A stretch of 64,000 nucleotides of DNA from Fimbriimonadales bacterium (GTDB lineage Bacteria; Armatimonadota; Fimbriimonadia; Fimbriimonadales; Fimbriimonadaceae), in contig JBBRML010000004.1 of the NCBI GenBank assembly GCA_038230855.1, forward strand, positions 15,562 through 79,561, given 5' to 3'. The notes under the pieces were generated by a model. It worked only from the letters and a program-made list of their open reading frames with translations, did not search any database and had not been told where the DNA came from. Below are positions 51,289-58,682 of the stretch, one piece after another. The number at the start of each line of letters is the position of its first letter. The first letter of the stretch is position 1. A program made the position numbers and the translations under genes.

Positions 51289-52728
51289 TTGGCAGAAGTC
51301 GTCGAAGACCTTGTGCCCGTGGTTCAACCTCACGAAAGCGCTGCGCGCGTCGTATGGCGACTAGCCTGGCCCGCGGTGGCTCTCAACTCGATGCAGGTCG
51401 CTAATAACCTGCTCGATCGTGGCTTTATTGGTCACCTGCATCAAGCATCTCTCACTGCCCACGGCTGCTCGATGAACGTCATGTTCCTCATGTTTTCGCT
51501 CGCGATGTCGCTGGCAACTGGAGCAACTGCACTTGTGAGCCGCGCGTATGGTGCCGGAAACGTCTCGGAATACCGCATGGCCGCGCAGCAAGCCCTTCGA
51601 GTCGCCATCATTGGCGGATTTCTTGTCGCGGCAATCACCGCATTGCTAAGCAGGCCAGTGGCTCACGCCTTGATTCCACCAGACGACCATGACGCGATGA
51701 CGGAGATGATCCGATTTGTGCTCGCCTACTCGTGCGGGCTTCCCGCCATCTGGGTGGTGCAGGCTTTGGCTGGATCGATGCGGGGCGTGGGGGACACAAA
51801 GAGTCCGATGGTGATCTCGGGCATTCAGATCGCGCTGCATATTTGCTTCAACTTCTTACTCATCTTTCCCGTTCGGCACGTGGGAAGCTTTACGATTCCC
51901 GGTGCAAACCTTGGCTTGGCGGGGGCGGGACTCGCCCTCTCTTCGTCGGCGTGGATCGCCTCGATCATGTATGTGCTTTACGCGTCCCGCACTCGACTCG
52001 GACGCGTCTTCTCGCTCTCGTTACCGACGCGAGAATGGATCGTTCGTATATTAAGAATTGCGATTCCGGCCGCGGCGATGGCCGTTTTGAGGGTGCTGTC
52101 GCTGACCGCGTTCACTCTGGTCCTAAAAGTTGTTCCAAATGGCTCGATTGCGATTGCTGCGATGAGCACAGGTTTCGCGATTGAGTCGGTTATGTTCATG
52201 CCAGCCTTTGGCGTCTCGATGGCCGCCGGGGCGCTTGTAGGTCAGAGTTTGGGAATGAAGCGGCCTGATCGCGCCGAGAAACTAGCGTGGACGGCAGCGC
52301 ATCATGCGGCGGGTGTAACGATCTGCCTCTGCATCCCTATTTTCCTCCTGTCCACGGCGATCCCACATTTGCTTCTCGGCGGAAAGTCGGAGATGGTCGC
52401 CCAGACCTCGATGCTCTTGCGCTACCTATGCTTCACGGAAGTGTTCTTCAGCTACGCGATGGTGATGATTGGAGCGATGCAAGGCGCAGGAGATACGCGA
52501 GCGCCGCTCGTGATCACCGTGCTCTGTCTCTGGGGAGTTCGAGTTCCTCTGGCCATCGTCCTCGCTTTGCCCGCCCACTTCAAACTTGGCGGATTCCTAC
52601 CGTTGCCAGTAGGCCTTGCCGTCGGCAGCGGGGGCGCGTGGATGTCAATGTCAATCACGCAGGCTATGCAGGGCGTGATGGCAGTTCAATTGTTCCGCCG
52701 GGGCGGCTGGCGTCGACAGACGGTTTGA
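51289..52728 (+). CDS. MATE family efflux transporter
   Basis: LAWP, RG.GDTK.P, GQSLG, GAGDTRAP; about 12 TMs. Confidence 0.93.
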   Translation: MAEVVEDLVPVVQPHESAARVVWRLAWPAVALNSMQVANNLLDRGFIGHLHQASLTAHGCSMNVMFLMFSLAMSLATGATALVSRAYGAGNVSEYRMAAQQALRVAIIGGFLVAAITALLSRPVAHALIPPDDHDAMTEMIRFVLAYSCGLPAIWVVQALAGSMRGVGDTKSPMVISGIQIALHICFNFLLIFPVRHVGSFTIPGANLGLAGAGLALSSSAWIASIMYVLYASRTRLGRVFSLSLPTREWIVRILRIAIPAAAMAVLRVLSLTAFTLVLKVVPNGSIAIAAMSTGFAIESVMFMPAFGVSMAAGALVGQSLGMKRPDRAEKLAWTAAHHAAGVTICLCIPIFLLSTAIPHLLLGGKSEMVAQTSMLLRYLCFTEVFFSYAMVMIGAMQGAGDTRAPLVITVLCLWGVRVPLAIVLALPAHFKLGGFLPLPVGLAVGSGGAWMSMSITQAMQGVMAVQLFRRGGWRRQTV

Positions 52729-52849
52729 GAGTAGGTTTTTGAATCCTTTCACCTCGCTCAGCCGTGCGAAATACTGAGCACGCTCGTGATGAGTTCGCAT
52801 ATTCGCGAGACATAAGTACAATGGGCAACTCGTATACCGTGAATTAATA

Positions 52850-53473
52850 ATGGAAGCACCTCCTACATTTTCCGCTCCCGCCAAAAAATCAGGCGGCTCA
52901 AAACTCTGGGTTTGGATCCTCGCGGGTGTCGGACTCTGCTGCGTACTGCCAGCGCTCGTCTGCGGCGGCGCGGCATTGTGGGGTCTCAATAAGTTCAAAG
53001 ATCTCGGGGCGTGCTTTGTAAACCTCGATGCCGTCAGTAAGTCCTTCCGAGAGTATTCGGACTCGCATGACGGAAAACTGCCGCCAGCCGCGACGTGGCA
53101 GGACGATCTCAAGTCGTCAGTTGCCAAAAACCTCAACATGAATGGCAAGGACACTGGACCATTCAAGTTGATGAAAGCTGACGGCGCTTGGGGCTGCACC
53201 AACGATGCTGGGGTCCAGTACGGCATTGCCTACAATACGACCGTTGCCGGGAAAAAGATCGGCGAAATCAAGCAAGAGGATGTGCTGTTCTACGAAGTTC
53301 CGGCGCCAAAGCAAAATCAAGCGGCACCCTACAAACCGCAAGACCCGGCAACGGGTCGCCAGGTATTTGGAAAGCCTTTCGGATGGATCTTCGTCACCGT
53401 CGGCGGCGAAAAGAACCTTCATGGCGTTACTGGTGATCAGCCAATGAGCAACACCAGCGTAAACCTCAAGTAA
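52850..53473 (+). CDS. Single-pass membrane protein with a pilin/DUF1559-like soluble domain
   Basis: Cys-rich TM followed by C..NL...Y...HDGKLP...W.D.L. Confidence 0.6.
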   Translation: MEAPPTFSAPAKKSGGSKLWVWILAGVGLCCVLPALVCGGAALWGLNKFKDLGACFVNLDAVSKSFREYSDSHDGKLPPAATWQDDLKSSVAKNLNMNGKDTGPFKLMKADGAWGCTNDAGVQYGIAYNTTVAGKKIGEIKQEDVLFYEVPAPKQNQAAPYKPQDPATGRQVFGKPFGWIFVTVGGEKNLHGVTGDQPMSNTSVNLK

Positions 53474-53548
53474 CGCCGACTGAGTCCGCTTAGCAATGGC
53501 CCGGTCGAACTCGGCCGGGCCATTATGCGTATACTTAATGGTAGGTTT

Positions 53549-53755
53549 ATGCCAATGCAACTGCCGCTCGCAAACATTCTCGGACCTTACGGACTCGTCA
53601 TCATCGGCGGATTACTGTTGTTGCTCTTCGGAGGAGCAAAAATCCCCGAGTTGATGCGCGGTATTGGTCGCGGTGCTGGTGAGCTGAAGAAAGGGCTCGA
53701 AGAGGGCAAGCAACCGGACTCACCGGACGACAAGAAGCCAGACGACAAGAAGTAA
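53549..53755 (+). CDS. tatA: Twin-arginine translocase TatA/E
   Basis: LLLLFGGAKIPELMRGIGRG..ELKKG; exact start uncertain (53525-53555). Confidence 0.88.
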   Translation: MPMQLPLANILGPYGLVIIGGLLLLLFGGAKIPELMRGIGRGAGELKKGLEEGKQPDSPDDKKPDDKK

Positions 53756-53775
53756 GCGTTGGCAAATATGAATTC

Positions 53776-54300
53776 ATGAATTGGACTGCCCCCGCACTCG
53801 CAAATTTTGGGAATATTGAAGGTTGGCTCATCGTAGTCGGCTTCGCGTTGCTGGTCTTTGGGCCCAAGAAGATTCCCGAACTGATGCGCGGTCTTGGGCG
53901 TGGTGTTGGCGAACTTCAGAAGGGGATCGAGGACGGGAAACGCATGTTGCATGATGCGACCCACATAGACCACGAAGCCTCGACTTCGAGCTCCTTTGTT
54001 CCCCCGAGCGACATGCCGAAGGTCGAAGAGCCTTCTACCGAAGTGCACACAGAGATAGGCGCCCCAAACACTGCGGCAGCCACCCAGATGGATGTGGCTC
54101 CGCCGAAAGATTTAGTCTCGCCGACGCCTGTTGAGCCGACGGTACCAGTCACCGCCGTAGTCTCGCCGACGCCTGTCGAGCCGACGGTACCAGTCACGTC
54201 AGTAGTCTCGCCGACGCCTGTAGAGCCGACCGCGCCAGTGACACCAGTAGTGGTGCCGACCGTGCCCATGGCTGGGCCGTCGATGCCGGCAAAGCCTTAA
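53776..54300 (+). CDS. TatA/TatB-family subunit with repetitive Pro/Val/Thr tail
   Basis: LLVFGPKKIPELMRGLGRG..ELQK followed by a long tail. Confidence 0.85.
   Translation: MNWTAPALANFGNIEGWLIVVGFALLVFGPKKIPELMRGLGRGVGELQKGIEDGKRMLHDATHIDHEASTSSSFVPPSDMPKVEEPSTEVHTEIGAPNTAAATQMDVAPPKDLVSPTPVEPTVPVTAVVSPTPVEPTVPVTSVVSPTPVEPTAPVTPVVVPTVPMAGPSMPAKP
54113..54260 (+). repeat. 45-bp tandem repeat, three copies plus a partial (VSPTPVEPTVPVTxV)
   Basis: TAGTCTCGCCGACGCCTGTNGAGCCGAC starts at 54113, 54158 and 54203; degenerate copy at 54248. Confidence 0.9.
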
Positions 54301-54304
54301 ATCC

Positions 54305-55096
54305 GTGCAATTCGGGTGGCACGGAATCAGTTTCGCGCACGACGATGATTTTGGACCGGCGGTCCTAACGGGCACGCAGTCCAAAGGCTACGTGCGACTT
54401 CAAAGCGGCGAAGGTCGAGTACTTCAAGTTCGTTGGCTGCCTGCAAAGACGCCTCCGACGACGACGAGCCTCTCAGACTATTTCAAGCGCTTGCAGCGAG
54501 ACAATCGAAAGTCTCCGAGCTTTAACATTGAATGCACCGAAACCGAGTCTGGAATCGAGTATCGGTATTCGGCTGCGCTTCGAGCGGAAGGACTCGGCCT
54601 TTTTGACGACGTCACTCAGCGAGTTTTCTTCGTCGAGGCGCTGAATACTCACCGAACCGGGGCCGCGAAAGACCTAAGGCGGATTCGCGCCAGCTTCGAG
54701 GTTTCAAACGATCCTCAGACATGGGCCGTCATGGGGCTCCATTCGCGCCTGCCAGGGCCCCTGAGAGTCATCAAGACTCGCTTGCTCAGCGGAAGAATTG
54801 GCCTTGACCTCTCGCGGCGAGGTCTCCGGATAACGATCGAGCGATGGGCGCTCGCCAAGCAGCTGCTTGAAAGGCATGACTTCGGAGAGTGGCTAATCGC
54901 CGCATCCAAGGTTCGGGGGCAGATCGATGAACCAAAGCTTGGACGCATGCGTATTCGCTGCTCGTCATGGAGTGGCAACTCCACCGTGATCGCTAAGGTC
55001 GATCCGGTCCATAATCAGATCGTCTTCGCGCGAGCGGACTACCGCGATCCGAAGTGGGAACCTACATGGGAGTGGTTGGATGACGGGACTCGTTAG
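54305..55096 (+). CDS. Hypothetical soluble protein, first gene of the PqqD/ABC operon
   Basis: 263-aa ORF overlapping the next gene; no signal peptide or TM seen. Confidence 0.75.
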   Translation: MQFGWHGISFAHDDDFGPAVLTGTQSKGYVRLQSGEGRVLQVRWLPAKTPPTTTSLSDYFKRLQRDNRKSPSFNIECTETESGIEYRYSAALRAEGLGLFDDVTQRVFFVEALNTHRTGAAKDLRRIRASFEVSNDPQTWAVMGLHSRLPGPLRVIKTRLLSGRIGLDLSRRGLRITIERWALAKQLLERHDFGEWLIAASKVRGQIDEPKLGRMRIRCSSWSGNSTVIAKVDPVHNQIVFARADYRDPKWEPTWEWLDDGTR

Positions 55097-55487
55097 GCAG
55101 CTCAGCCAGTTCGTTCGTGGGCCAAACCGGCTGGCGCCAGAGCGGTACGCGGCCTCAAAACCGCTCAGGAATCCAACGGCGGTTGAATCAACCGACGCCG
55201 AGGGAAATCTCGTGCTTACTTTCTCCGTTGAGCACGATCAGCGCCTAATTACGCGGATCTTCGACCGGCTGGCGCGCTCGAGGGAGACTAGAGAGTTCCT
55301 GCTTGAATCCATCGGGGCGACGGTCTGGCGAGCTTGCGACGGAAAAACAACGGTGAAAACCATCGCAAAGCGCTTGTGCACGGAGTATAAGATGAACAAG
55401 CTGGAGGCAGAAACTGCTTTGGCGCAGTATCTCCAAACGCTCAGTCAACGCGGACTCATCACCATGCTCGTTGTAGGAAAGAAGTGA
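55080..55487 (+). CDS. PqqD-family (RiPP recognition element-like) protein
   Basis: LESIGATVWRACDGKTTVKTIA..L......AE..L..YL..L..RGLI wHTH signature. Confidence 0.85.
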   Translation: MTGLVRQLSQFVRGPNRLAPERYAASKPLRNPTAVESTDAEGNLVLTFSVEHDQRLITRIFDRLARSRETREFLLESIGATVWRACDGKTTVKTIAKRLCTEYKMNKLEAETALAQYLQTLSQRGLITMLVVGKK

Positions 55488-56053
55488 AATCCACTACGAA
55501 CGTCGATCCACCGCTGCGGGTAGCGTGGACACAGGCGATCGCGAGCATTCGAGTGCGTTTTTTGCGCATGGCGATCACGACGCTTGGAATTGCGCTCGGA
55601 ATTGCTTTCTTTTGTAGCATGCAAACGCTCCGAATCGCCGAGAGTACGGTCGTGGGCTCAGAACGGGACCGTCAAGCATGGTTGATCGCAACTTCCCTGC
55701 TCATGTGCTTGGTCGGAGTAACGAACTCAATGCTGATGTCCGTCGGAGAGCGATTCCGTGAAATCGGCACCATAAAATGCTTGGGGGCTTCAGACGGGTT
55801 TGTTGTGAAGATATTCGTGCTTGAGGCGCTCTTACTGGGGTTGATCGGATCGTCCGTTGGAGCCACCCTTGGCACGGTAGCAATTGCGGTGTTCGCGACG
55901 CGTGCCGGCGAGACGGTCACGTTGCCGCAAGTGGCAACCACAATTGGCGTCGGCGTGGCCGCGGGGGCGCTCCTGACCATTACGGCAGCCGTGGTGCCGG
56001 CAATGCAGGCGGCGCGAATGCCTGCCGCCGCCGCCCTCCGGGTGGAACTTTGA
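55484..56053 (+). CDS. Minimal MacB/FtsX-type ABC permease
   Basis: R..R..IT.LGIALG; N.ML.SV.ER.REIG.IK.LGA; E...LG..G; almost no periplasmic loop. Confidence 0.85.
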   Translation: MKSTTNVDPPLRVAWTQAIASIRVRFLRMAITTLGIALGIAFFCSMQTLRIAESTVVGSERDRQAWLIATSLLMCLVGVTNSMLMSVGERFREIGTIKCLGASDGFVVKIFVLEALLLGLIGSSVGATLGTVAIAVFATRAGETVTLPQVATTIGVGVAAGALLTITAAVVPAMQAARMPAAAALRVEL

Positions 56054-56769
56054 GCGAAGTCGTCGTACGAACCGTGGACATAGCCAAGCAATATGGCGAA
56101 GGCGAAGCGGCGGTGCGAGCACTTAACAGCGTCACGTGCGAGATATACGCCGGCGAGTATCTGTCGATCATGGGTCCGTCTGGTTCCGGAAAATCAACGC
56201 TTTTCAACATGATCGGGGGCCTAGACAAGCCGACCGAGGGTAGCGTCTTCGTCAATTCTGTAGATCTGGCTCAATTGACCCCGCGAGAGCTCGCGTTCCT
56301 GCGGTGCCATACGATTGGCTACATTTTTCAAACGTTCAATCTGATCGCCGTTCGCACCGCTTTGGAAAATGTGACATTGCCGATGCTATTTGCGGGAACC
56401 AACCCGGACGACGCGAACTCACGTGGCCGTGAGCTACTTGACCTTGTAGGTCTTGGGCACCGTCTGCATCACCGGCCGAGTGAGCTTAGCGGCGGACAGC
56501 AACAGCGTGTTGCGGTCGCGCGAGCGTTAGCAAAGTCCCCGACGATCATCCTTGCGGATGAACCGACGGGGAATCTGGACCTGAAAACTGGGCAAGAGAT
56601 CATTGACCTCTTGCGGAGTTTGAACGAGGACCGAAACGTGACCATCATTTCGGCCACCCATGATCACAAGATGCTCAGCGTTTCGGATCGAATCTTTAGC
56701 ATCCGCGATGGTCAACTCGCGGATGTCCAAGTGAATGAGAAGGTCAGGCCTTCGGCTTCTGAAGCGTAA
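56050..56769 (+). CDS. LolD/MacB-type ABC ATPase
   Basis: [42 protein letters not shown]. Confidence 0.95.
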
Positions 56770-57571
56770 TTTTGACCGTTGAATTGCTGGTGCTGTCGCC
56801 GGTCATCCCAATGGCCGACATGTCCATCGTGGCCTTGTCCTTCATTGTCATCGTCGTTTCGAGCGTTTGACCGGTAGCTGGATCGACAAGGATGTCCGCG
56901 GTCACCGTCGAGGCACCCTTGATCGCGAGGTCGGAAGGCAAGTTGGGAATATCGTCGGCAGTCATCTTGATTAGGTATTCGAGTACGCCAGTCATTTTGA
57001 GTTGGACCTGTCCGTCCTTCATTCCGACATAGGTGACCTTCATTTTTTGCTCCTTATTCAAGGTAGCGGGGCTCTTCGGAATTACCATGTCCCAACTGTC
57101 GCCTGCATTAACTGCCTTGTCGGAGAAGGTGACGAATATGCCGTTCAATCGGCTAACGGAGCCTAGAGCCATTGAAACCATTCCCTTCATCTTTGCATCC
57201 TCAAGTGTGACGATATTGAGCGATGAAATCGTACCTTTCTGGGTAAACGCAGGAATCTCGCTTGCAGGCGGAACCCCGTCGGCGCCGGGCCCGGTCATCT
57301 TCATTTCCACCAGTTTCATCGACTGAGTCAGGTTCATCTCACCCTTGTCGTTCGCCTCTAGGTATTTGACGGTGACGCTCGCTCCAACCGAGGACTCTTG
57401 CTCGATGTCCATACCGCCGATGCTGATGTTCATCTTTGACTTCTGCTCGAGCTTGTAGACCTCCGAAGTGTTTGGCTTAACGACTCGCTTAAGCGTGACA
57501 CCGTCATGAGCGGCAAAAGCCACGGATGCCAGCGCGAAAACAGCAATTGCTGAAACGTGAGTAATCTTCAT
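56744..57571 (-). CDS. Secreted hypothetical protein (DUF6263-like)
   Basis: Signal peptide; beta-strand-rich; V..GDSW motif. Confidence 0.6.
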   Translation of the reverse strand: MKITHVSAIAVFALASVAFAAHDGVTLKRVVKPNTSEVYKLEQKSKMNISIGGMDIEQESSVGASVTVKYLEANDKGEMNLTQSMKLVEMKMTGPGADGVPPASEIPAFTQKGTISSLNIVTLEDAKMKGMVSMALGSVSRLNGIFVTFSDKAVNAGDSWDMVIPKSPATLNKEQKMKVTYVGMKDGQVQLKMTGVLEYLIKMTADDIPNLPSDLAIKGASTVTADILVDPATGQTLETTMTMKDKATMDMSAIGMTGDSTSNSTVKITLQKPKA

Positions 57572-57665
57572 TTAATTCCAAAGATAGCACACGGGGTCCG
57601 TGCGCATCCGCATCGGAAATACGTTTTAGCCCGTCTTAACGTTACGGTATGGGACCCAAGAATTA

Positions 57666-58682
57666 GTGGTTGGTCTAAATTTTGCGCCTTTTGGGCCCAT
57701 CCATGAGTTCACTCTTGGCCTTGGCGGTGACCTCATGCTGAACGCGATCACCCCCTCCGAGAAGCCTTGGACGGGGATCGCTCCCGACATCCGTCGGCCG
57801 GACGTATTCCTAGCAAATCTTGAAATTCCTTTGACCGATGAGAAGGCGAAAACTCTGAGGAAGTCGGCCGCAGAGCTCAAGGCACGATCGCAGTTTGTGC
57901 TGAAGGCGGATCCCAAGCATGCGGCCTTCATGGCAGCCGCCGGATTCGATCTTGTCTCGCTGGCCAATAATCACGGTATGGATTACGGGCCCAATGGAAA
58001 TCGCCAAATGCGGCGAGCGCTAGAGGCGGCCAAAATCCACTTTGCCGGTGCAGGAGACAACGCGGCAGAGGCGATGGCCTTCTCGGTCATCACTCTCAAG
58101 GACGGAACGAGAATTGGGCTTTTCTCCGCTCTCGCGTTCTTAGGTCGGGGAGCACTCCTAAAGACCACCCCAGCGCGGCTAAACGCCCCAGGCGTCAACG
58201 TGCTCAACTTCAATGCTCGAATCGATGACTCAGCTAAATCTCGAATCAAGCGCATTGTCGCCAACGGCCATCGAGTGTGCGACTTTTTGGTTATTGGACT
58301 GCATTGGGGGATCGAACGGAAGCCAGTACCCGCGGCTTATCAGGTGGAACTTGGCCGTGCTTTCGCCGCAAGCGGCGCAAATCTAGTTTGGGGCCATCAT
58401 CCGCACGTGTTGCAAGGCGCAGAGTTGTACTCTGGAGTGCCCATTCTGTATTCGATGGGAAACCTGATTTCACCGACGCCTGCGCTAAGCGGCATCATCC
58501 ATATCCGAGTTCGAGAAGGCCATATCGTCCGCTCCTTCTTTCAACCTGTTATCGTGCGCGGAGGTAACGCCGCCAGTGAAACTGGCCCGGCTGGAAAAGC
58601 AAGCCGGGCAAAATTCGCAGAGCTTTGCCGAAAGTTTCATAAGATTTATCCCTCACCTCTATCGAAACCTCTTCGGATCTAG
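57666..58682 (+). CDS. CapA/poly-gamma-glutamate-synthesis family metallophosphoesterase
   Basis: GGDLML, ANLE, LANNHGMDYG, HWG.E, GHHPHVLQG, YSMGN. Confidence 0.92.
   Translation: MVGLNFAPFGPIHEFTLGLGGDLMLNAITPSEKPWTGIAPDIRRPDVFLANLEIPLTDEKAKTLRKSAAELKARSQFVLKADPKHAAFMAAAGFDLVSLANNHGMDYGPNGNRQMRRALEAAKIHFAGAGDNAAEAMAFSVITLKDGTRIGLFSALAFLGRGALLKTTPARLNAPGVNVLNFNARIDDSAKSRIKRIVANGHRVCDFLVIGLHWGIERKPVPAAYQVELGRAFAASGANLVWGHHPHVLQGAELYSGVPILYSMGNLISPTPALSGIIHIRVREGHIVRSFFQPVIVRGGNAASETGPAGKASRAKFAELCRKFHKIYPSPLSKPLRI

Follow-up and report, generated by a model that had tools for sequence, protein, structure and literature searches.

A 64,000-nucleotide stretch of the genome of a Fimbriimonadales bacterium (phylum Armatimonadota; assembly GCA_038230855.1, contig JBBRML010000004.1, positions 15,562 to 79,561 of the forward strand), called the window below, contains a block of four genes that encode a 263-aa protein, a PqqD-family protein, a short FtsX-type permease (mini-FtsX) and an ATP-binding cassette (ABC) ATPase. 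An earlier reading of the letters alone, the original prediction, had presented the block as a self-contained, stripped-down type VII ABC complex with an orphan RRE, the recognition element known from pathways for ribosomally synthesized and post-translationally modified peptides (RiPPs). The analysis described here indicates that the block is probably not an orphan miniature transporter, and that it more plausibly belongs to a widespread, six-component type VII ABC machine whose genes are naturally split in this genome (Table 1).

The four overlapping genes are real, in that the open reading frame (ORF) coordinates and the overlaps of 17, 4 and 4 bp between successive genes were all reproduced. 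A GGAG motif is located about 8 nt 5′ of the ATG of the PqqD gene, within the 263-aa gene. Hydropathy analysis finds zero transmembrane (TM) segments and zero signal peptides in the 263-aa and PqqD proteins, and both are therefore cytoplasmic, which agrees with the earlier description of the 263-aa protein as soluble. An Rfam scan of positions 52000-57800 yields no RNA family match at E ≤ 1. A promoter and terminator scan, which overall performed no better than on shuffled sequence, returned nothing usable within the four-gene block, and its sole promoter-like matches are at 52794-52851, just upstream of the up207 gene. A catalogued defence system was also considered and rejected; the PADLOC matches are to generic LolE-TM and ATPase domains only.

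Table 1. The four-gene block, its upstream neighbours (window positions) and its proposed partners on other contigs of the same genome (G000).
Feature	Location	Strand	Remarks
263-aa protein gene	54305..55096	+	GTG start; no Pfam/NCBIfam match; proposed cytoplasmic adaptor
PqqD-family protein, 135 aa	55080..55487	+	Pfam PqqD; RRE fold model; cytoplasmic
mini-FtsX permease, 189 aa	55484..56053	+	Pfam FtsX; four TM helices
ABC ATPase, 239 aa, MacB/LolD/FtsE class	56050..56769	+	ABC_tran
Giant FtsX, 1475 aa	G000 C48:2835-7262		FtsX and M28 domains
OPT-like polytopic membrane protein, 649 aa	G000 C43:24273-26222		Homology to cis-cluster proteins
up207, 207-aa membrane-anchored protein	52850..53473	+	Heads the up207-tatA-tatA block; no Pfam match
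tatA-family gene 1, 76 aa	53525..53755	+	TatA_B_E, 32.9 bits
tatA/tatB-like gene 2, 174 aa	53776..54300	+	TatA_B_E, 39.9 bits; Pro/Val/Thr-rich tail

The PqqD protein is recognized by Pfam PF05402 (43.9 bits; cut-off 23.4) and is the product of the genome's single PqqD-family gene; every pathway-specific (RiPP) NCBIfam PqqD model scores it far below the model's own cut-off. In Foldseek searches, its AlphaFold2 model (predicted local distance difference test, pLDDT, 84.1) has leader peptide-bound TbiB1 and lasso B1 6jx3_B as top matches (target TM-score 0.76-0.82, probability 1.0) and also matches PqqD itself (5sxy; TM-score 0.69), so that the RRE fold proposed for 55080-55487 is upheld by the model. 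In particular, the winged helix and three-stranded β-sheet are common to the window protein and to the RREs PqqD and lasso B1 (TbiB1, PDB 5v1v/5v1u; 6jx3). Known RREs take up the leader peptide as an additional β-strand. The window protein differs from them in an extra N-terminal segment with a conserved PxRN motif, in a low-confidence insert at residues 50-69 and in its constant neighbours, which are an ABC module and a PsbP-like protein; moreover, RRE systems have precursor peptide or modifying enzyme genes as partners, whereas the window protein has neither.

The 263-aa protein has no match in Pfam or NCBIfam at E ≤ 0.1. Its AlphaFold2 model, built from a 16-sequence alignment, has two similar α/β domains (pLDDT 92.2; predicted TM-score, pTM, 0.83). 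Foldseek searches of the PDB match one domain to PsbP, Mog1p, DcrB and Tsi3 at probabilities of 0.9-1.0, reaching 1.0 for PsbP (1v2b, 2vu4, 3jcu_P) and Mog1p (1eq6) with target TM-scores of 0.44-0.59 over that one domain; a further PsbP structure (9gnw_P) is among the matches, and TplEi, a two-domain immunity protein of the type VI secretion system (PDB 5h7z), spans both domains (E 3e-4). Because of these matches, the 263-aa protein is classified, at the level of its predicted structure, as a tandem PsbP/Mog1-type protein. The PsbP/Mog1 fold serves protein-protein binding. Each half shares the α/β sandwich of PsbP and Mog1, and TplEi is likewise two-domain, but there is no detectable sequence kinship (6-14% identity); further, PsbP is lumenal and DcrB periplasmic, whereas the 263-aa protein is cytoplasmic and, unlike these proteins, is always paired with a PqqD protein. 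An exhaustive profile search found 1261 representatives of the 263-aa family at 50% clustering, 599 of them at E ≤ 1e-10, a notable size for a family that has no curated model.

The mini-FtsX permease matches the Pfam FtsX C-terminal domain over residues 68-180 (58.9 bits; cut-off 25.5) and has four hydrophobic segments in FtsX order. By hydropathy, its TM1-TM2 gap of about 15 residues holds no periplasmic domain, as had been noticed from the letters, and the gap in its homologues is 15-24 residues. These homologues carry an invariant ERxxEIGTxKCLGA motif in the cytoplasmic TM2-TM3 loop, which is presumably placed where MacB-type permeases contact their ATPase. They are about 187-213 aa long in the related loci, and about 187-260 aa when these 20 loci and 78 further loci are all considered; this uniform shortness excludes the possibility that the permease is a MacB truncated by the assembly. 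Its scores against NCBIfam models are low, with 24-31 bits for the FtsX equivalogs (cut-offs 225-255) and 23-29 bits for the LolE and LolC/E models (cut-offs 362-540). The ATPase matches ABC_tran with 112 bits, and its Walker A, signature, Walker B with catalytic Glu and H-loop (THD) are all intact; its top NCBIfam models are LolD, MacB, YbbA, DevA and FtsE at 204-234 bits (LolD 234.3, with a cut-off of 307.75; MacB 212; FtsE 204), all under the equivalog cut-offs. Overall, the FtsX four-helix domain and the MacB/LolD/FtsE-class ATPase, whose gene overlaps that of the permease by 4 bp, place the pair among the type VII ABC systems.

The genes are conserved together. In all 20 related loci, the 263-aa, PqqD and mini-FtsX genes are adjacent and co-oriented, and the ATPase gene follows mini-FtsX in most of them; the exceptions are three loci of one family that are considered below. 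The identity to the window proteins decreases from the ATPase (66-86% across the order) to mini-FtsX (40-67%), the PqqD protein (30-47%) and the 263-aa protein (21-38%). In the three loci of family f4 (L029, L030 and L031), the 263-aa homologue is longer (323-403 aa) and is aligned only over its first ~200 residues.

Full-length relatives of mini-FtsX occur at no fewer than 580 loci (≥ 580) in species-representative genomes, and gene order and neighbouring ORFs were mapped and clustered for the best 80 of these, which come from Fimbriimonadales, other Armatimonadota, Latescibacterota, Desulfobulbales/Desulfobacterales, Poribacteria, Hydrogenedentota, WS1 and Planctomycetes. Three layouts are found. 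At least 22 complete loci, in other Armatimonadota and Latescibacterota, have the order giant FtsX (~1500 aa), OPT-like protein (~660 aa), 263-aa homologue, PqqD, mini-FtsX and ATPase; about nine Desulfobulbales loci have mini-FtsX, ATPase, giant, DUF6785 and OPT-like protein (~650 aa); and the four genes stand by themselves, after tatA, in the nine Fimbriimonadales loci only. Across the 80 loci, clustering of the neighbouring ORFs recovers mini-FtsX in 78, the ATPase in 75, PqqD in 49, the 263-aa family in 43, the OPT-like protein in 34 and the giant in 31, and these six families are the only ones that recur broadly. Each cluster has one ATPase gene versus two FtsX-type permeases. A cultured species, Chthonomonas calidirosea, carries a full cis cluster (L091). 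An apparent 833-aa fusion ending in mini-FtsX (L081) is not a true gene fusion; its upstream part is a spurious, GC-rich extension of the frame into the OPT-like gene.

The original prediction had suggested that partners might be encoded elsewhere in the genome, including a large co-occurring permease, and both were found. A genome-wide FtsX search returned ordinary full-size permeases, a canonical ftsE-ftsX pair on contig C41 and the 1475-aa frame on C48; the OPT-like protein is encoded on C43. The giant consists of a signal-like N-terminus, an M28 domain, extra TM helices, an FtsX bundle and a cytoplasmic tail of ~165 aa. Its N-terminal ectodomain of ~750 aa is based on the M28/PA peptidase fold (PF04389, 37.9 bits; cut-off 21.3), and the alignment with aminopeptidase 2ek8 has the His of the HxD motif changed to Tyr and the GAEE motif changed to GAHF (Glu-Glu to His-Phe). 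Because these catalytic or metal-binding residues are replaced, the M28 domain is, judged from its residues, an inactive pseudo-peptidase. By hydropathy, TM1 (921-939) and TM2 (1201-1219) of the giant's FtsX bundle are ~260 aa apart and enclose a predicted periplasmic domain, a putative counterpart of the Porter/Sabre domain that mini-FtsX lacks at this position. No ATPase gene was found near the giant gene on C48. The OPT-like protein is 48-55% identical to the ~660-aa membrane proteins of the cis clusters.

The three loci are inherited together. The giant, OPT-like and four-gene loci are present in the same 25 of 41 related genomes, and the remaining 16 lack all of them. An initial search detected the 263-aa gene in 23 of the 25; a query drawn from the family of G027 and G035 then recovered it in these two genomes and gave no match in two control genomes. 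The loci are far apart, for example at 1.97, 2.27 and 4.87 Mb in G023 and at 2.72, 3.23 and 1.48 Mb in G013. On a maximum-likelihood tree of RpoB from the 41 genomes, their distribution corresponds to four independent presence/absence changes (bootstrap range 4-4), namely in family f2, in G040, in G005 (sister of G006, support 100/100) and in an 11-genome clade of the window's genus, and all three unlinked loci change together at each of these events. In a phylum-wide sample of 401 genomes, 293 have the OPT-like gene (154 of 205 genera) and 288 match the PqqD-family profile; comparison of the lists by eye shows the 288 to be a subset of the 293, and both are lacking in 108 genomes. The PqqD and OPT-like genes are 1-3 kb apart on one contig outside the order, and on different contigs or megabases apart within it. 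This co-inheritance of unlinked loci strongly supports a functional dependence of the four window genes on the giant FtsX and the OPT-like protein, and it indicates that a six-gene operon was broken up in the ancestor of Fimbriimonadales; because the operon is split in this order, the joint loss of three loci is unusually clean evidence of such dependence. The part of the original prediction that described a self-contained complex with an orphan RRE is not supported, as mini-FtsX always co-occurs with the giant FtsX and the OPT-like protein, whose genes share its operon in most lineages and occupy two separate loci in this order. Moreover, the system is missing from 12 of 25 genomes of the same genus, a patchy distribution that points to an accessory function.

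With a probability of roughly 0.7, the four genes encode the cytoplasmic and energizing part of an envelope machine of the type VII (MacB/FtsX-type) ABC kind, which has six components and is split into three loci. Since each cluster combines one ATPase gene with two FtsX-type permeases, the simplest assembly would be two ATPase copies bound to an asymmetric permease pair, composed of the 189-aa mini-FtsX without an ectodomain and the 1475-aa giant FtsX with its periplasmic and pseudo-peptidase parts. The pair would be the split-gene counterpart of the two FtsX bundles in BceB, one of which bears the ectodomain. The energy of ATP binding and hydrolysis would be transmitted mechanically to the periplasmic parts of the giant, the putative working end of the machine, and the 649-aa OPT-like protein would supply a membrane path and work with those parts. 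By analogy with RREs, the PqqD/RRE and tandem PsbP/Mog1 proteins may serve as cytoplasmic adaptors for a peptide segment in extended form; this segment could belong either to a substrate or to the tail of a partner protein, and the adaptors, by binding it, could deliver it or gate the ATPase. The preferred guess for the function is that the machine captures a peptide or protein ligand on the outer side of the inner membrane and handles it there in coupling with the OPT-like permease; such a role would be accessory rather than core, and related to nutrients or to the envelope. A broader proposal is more tentative and falls somewhat short of even odds: that these systems form a kind of envelope machine not recognized before, found in most Armatimonadota and several further phyla, in which an asymmetric motor is obligatorily coupled to an OPT-fold permease, an RRE/PqqD protein recruited from natural-product biosynthesis and a tandem PsbP protein load or gate it as a peptide-recognizing subunit in the cytoplasm, and the split operon of Fimbriimonadales proves the interdependence of the six genes.

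Several observations weigh against the six-component machine. In the three f4 loci, there is no ATPase match after mini-FtsX in the fetched region, and in L081 and the Desulfobulbales-type clusters, profile searches detect no 263-aa or PqqD gene, so the 263-aa and PqqD proteins may be dispensable, or too divergent for detection. The OPT-like protein matches Pfam OPT at 21.9 bits, below the gathering score of 25.8, and over its C-terminal 110 residues only. At the phylum level, the presence lists were matched up by eye. Further, co-occurrence speaks for functional dependence and not for one mini-FtsX/giant heterodimer; a mini-FtsX homodimer could operate beside the giant.

A homodimer is central to the explanation closest to the original prediction, in which mini-FtsX and the ATPase form a self-contained miniature ABC complex, the RRE and 263-aa proteins deliver to it or regulate it, and the giant and OPT-like proteins act in the same pathway as separate machines. 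MacB and FtsX permeases are normally homodimers, and the four genes are translationally coupled and stay together where the other two have moved away. We nevertheless regard this explanation as unlikely, as no ATPase gene is dedicated to the giant, either on C48 or in the cis clusters, each of which has a single ATPase gene; the co-loss is perfect over four independent events; and an ectodomain-free type VII permease has no known way to work outside the membrane. A module for RiPP export or immunity, whose RRE would bind a leader peptide and whose enzymes and precursor would be encoded elsewhere in the genome, draws on the PqqD family and RRE fold being typical of RiPP pathways and on MacB-type pumps exporting some peptides, and NCBIfam models of darobactin and lactococcin-972 exporter ATPases score 185-198 bits. 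It is highly improbable because, over the 80 loci, only the six core families recur, and genes for modifying enzymes or short precursors do not; as the original prediction had observed, none flanks the window cluster either. The partner set consists of membrane and adaptor proteins, the RiPP-specific PqqD models remain far below their cut-offs, and one architecture is conserved in 73% of the phylum's genomes, unlike the patchy and diverse RiPP clusters. A divergent housekeeping FtsEX (division) or LolCDE (lipoprotein release) system is almost certainly the wrong explanation: LolD and FtsE are among the ATPase's best NCBIfam models, but all scores are under the equivalog cut-offs, contig C41 carries a canonical ftsE-ftsX pair followed by a 406-aa gene, the mini permease lacks an ectodomain for binding LolA or the FtsX partners EnvC, PcsB or RipC, and the system is missing from 16 of 41 close relatives (12 of the 25 genomes of the genus among them), which misfits an essential function and the near-universal conservation of FtsEX.

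The block's position after two tatA-family genes invites a further explanation, in which the adaptors and the ABC module act on TatA, a small membrane protein with an N-terminal anchor, or on substrates of twin-arginine translocation (Tat). The position itself is as originally described: the TAA stop of the second gene (54298-54300) is 4 bp 5′ of the GTG of the 263-aa gene, and both tatA products match TatA_B_E. A tatA gene is directly upstream of the block in 17 of 20 related loci and in one locus outside the order (L074), and the two window genes are the genome's only TatA-family genes. The single tatC is on another contig (C63), and for these two reasons the tatA genes are the housekeeping Tat subunits. 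In six sister genomes from which the system is absent, the up207-tatA-tatA block is retained with none of the four genes after it, and Tat thus does not require the system; in the cis clusters of other lineages, tatA is nearly always absent, L074 being the exception. Based on these two observations, the adjacency is best read as positional and lineage-specific, possibly with read-through transcription, and it does not speak for TatA as a component or client; a Tat-linked function is thus very unlikely. The C-terminal tail of the second tatA protein (54100-54265) contains three near-identical copies of VSPTPVEPT(V/A)PVT(A/S)VV.

Other neighbours and paralogues were recorded. A seventh small family is found between the OPT-like and 263-aa genes in about nine Armatimonadota loci (L044:7327-8480, L076:5831-6424, L087:7927-8478, L053:6-464, L054, L056, L108 and L110 among its members); it combines an N-terminal membrane anchor with the first part of DUF1559, with the motif C..NLK...Y..DYD...P...W, and one member is over the Pfam DUF1559 cut-off (24.2 vs 23.3 bits). 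The up207 protein is weakly similar to this short, in-operon DUF1559-like family of other Armatimonadota (blastp ~1e-7), and a full DUF1559 prepilin-like gene is directly upstream of the giant gene (G000 C48:7263-8144). Pseudopilin-like (DUF1559) proteins might be clients or partners of the machine; DUF1559 genes are very numerous in these phyla. A gene at G000 C96:9761-11761 (-) encodes a 666-aa membrane protein with DUF6785 and DUF6784 that is distantly paralogous to the OPT-like partner and belongs to the family that adjoins the giant gene in Desulfobulbales; here it is apart, beside a 464-aa gene. The giant's pseudo-M28 domain has weak sequence matches to Nicalin (E ~4e-4), the inactive M28-like subunit of a eukaryotic membrane-protein biogenesis complex of the endoplasmic reticulum, which is thus another dead M28 fold attached to a membrane machine. 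In the window, a convergent gene for a 275-aa secreted protein (56744-57571, minus strand; no family match) overlaps the end of the ATPase gene by 26 bp, and its position is kept in several genomes of the genus, beside a PGA_cap-family gene (57666-58682); other large window ORFs encode a glucan phosphorylase, FliD and unknowns. The assembly also has a second rpoB besides that on C41 (G000 C126:1847-5302, a 1247-aa frame); the C126 contig is probably a contaminant, which fits the stated contamination of 1.4%.

The type VII ABC systems MacAB, LolCDE, FtsEX, BceAB and YbbAP are central envelope machines, and each was understood only once its partner proteins had been identified. The present system is common, occurring in ~73% of sampled Armatimonadota genomes and in several phyla, and has a fixed composition of six parts. 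If the proposed machine is correct, it would contain an FtsX permease working as a bare membrane half-unit, a peptidase fold reused as the ectodomain of an ABC permease, and an RRE/PqqD domain acting outside RiPP biosynthesis. The last point matters for genome mining, where a stand-alone PqqD match is often taken as the sign of a natural-product cluster. Because cultured C. calidirosea carries the full cis cluster, the system is experimentally testable. In the literature searched, no paper has both PqqD and FtsX and none mentions DUF6785, and searches of the type VII ABC literature, including with Armatimonadota, returned only work on the known MacAB, LolCDE, FtsEX, BceAB and YbbAP systems; the original prediction's view of the system as undescribed accords with these results.

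Among the known systems, BceAB of Bacillus subtilis offers the closest parallel to the proposed assembly. Cryo-electron microscopy of BceB resolved TM1-4 and TM7-10 as pseudo-symmetric FtsX-fold bundles with a single ectodomain between TM7 and TM8 (PMC9169098), so that an FtsX module without an ectodomain has a solved precedent in a type VII ABC system (PMC9169098, PMC12646458). BceAB has two MacB-class ATPases, two FtsX bundles and one ectodomain, and the window system, known from its genes, is proposed to be alike. Moreover, mechanotransmission is the mode of action of type VII systems, which can also have partners embedded in the membrane (PMC9169098, PMC12646458); BceAB works in this way rather than by transport across the membrane, and the same action is proposed here. 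In BceB, both bundles are part of one 10-TM chain, whereas in the window system a 189-aa and a 1475-aa protein would each contribute one; the sequence relationship between the two systems is remote, and the giant adds the pseudo-M28/PA ectodomain and the ~165-aa cytoplasmic tail. The membrane partner of BceAB is the histidine kinase BceS, and in the window system its place would be taken by the OPT-like protein together with two cytoplasmic adaptors.

LolCDE of E. coli also combines two paralogous FtsX-type permeases with a homodimeric MacB-class ATPase, and the window ATPase scores best on LolD. In contrast, LolC and LolE both have periplasmic domains, whereas one permease of the window system has no ectodomain; and LolCDE is essential and universal in diderm Proteobacteria, whereas the window system appears accessory and is under the LolD, LolC and LolE cut-offs. 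The YbbAP-TesA system of E. coli (PMC12646458) is a parallel of another kind, as its function was found through a co-evolving, separately encoded partner, and it acts on a bound ectoprotein by mechanotransmission. YbbP carries two periplasmic domains, and the esterase that it binds is active, whereas in the window's giant FtsX the 'enzyme' domain is fused to the permease and appears catalytically dead.

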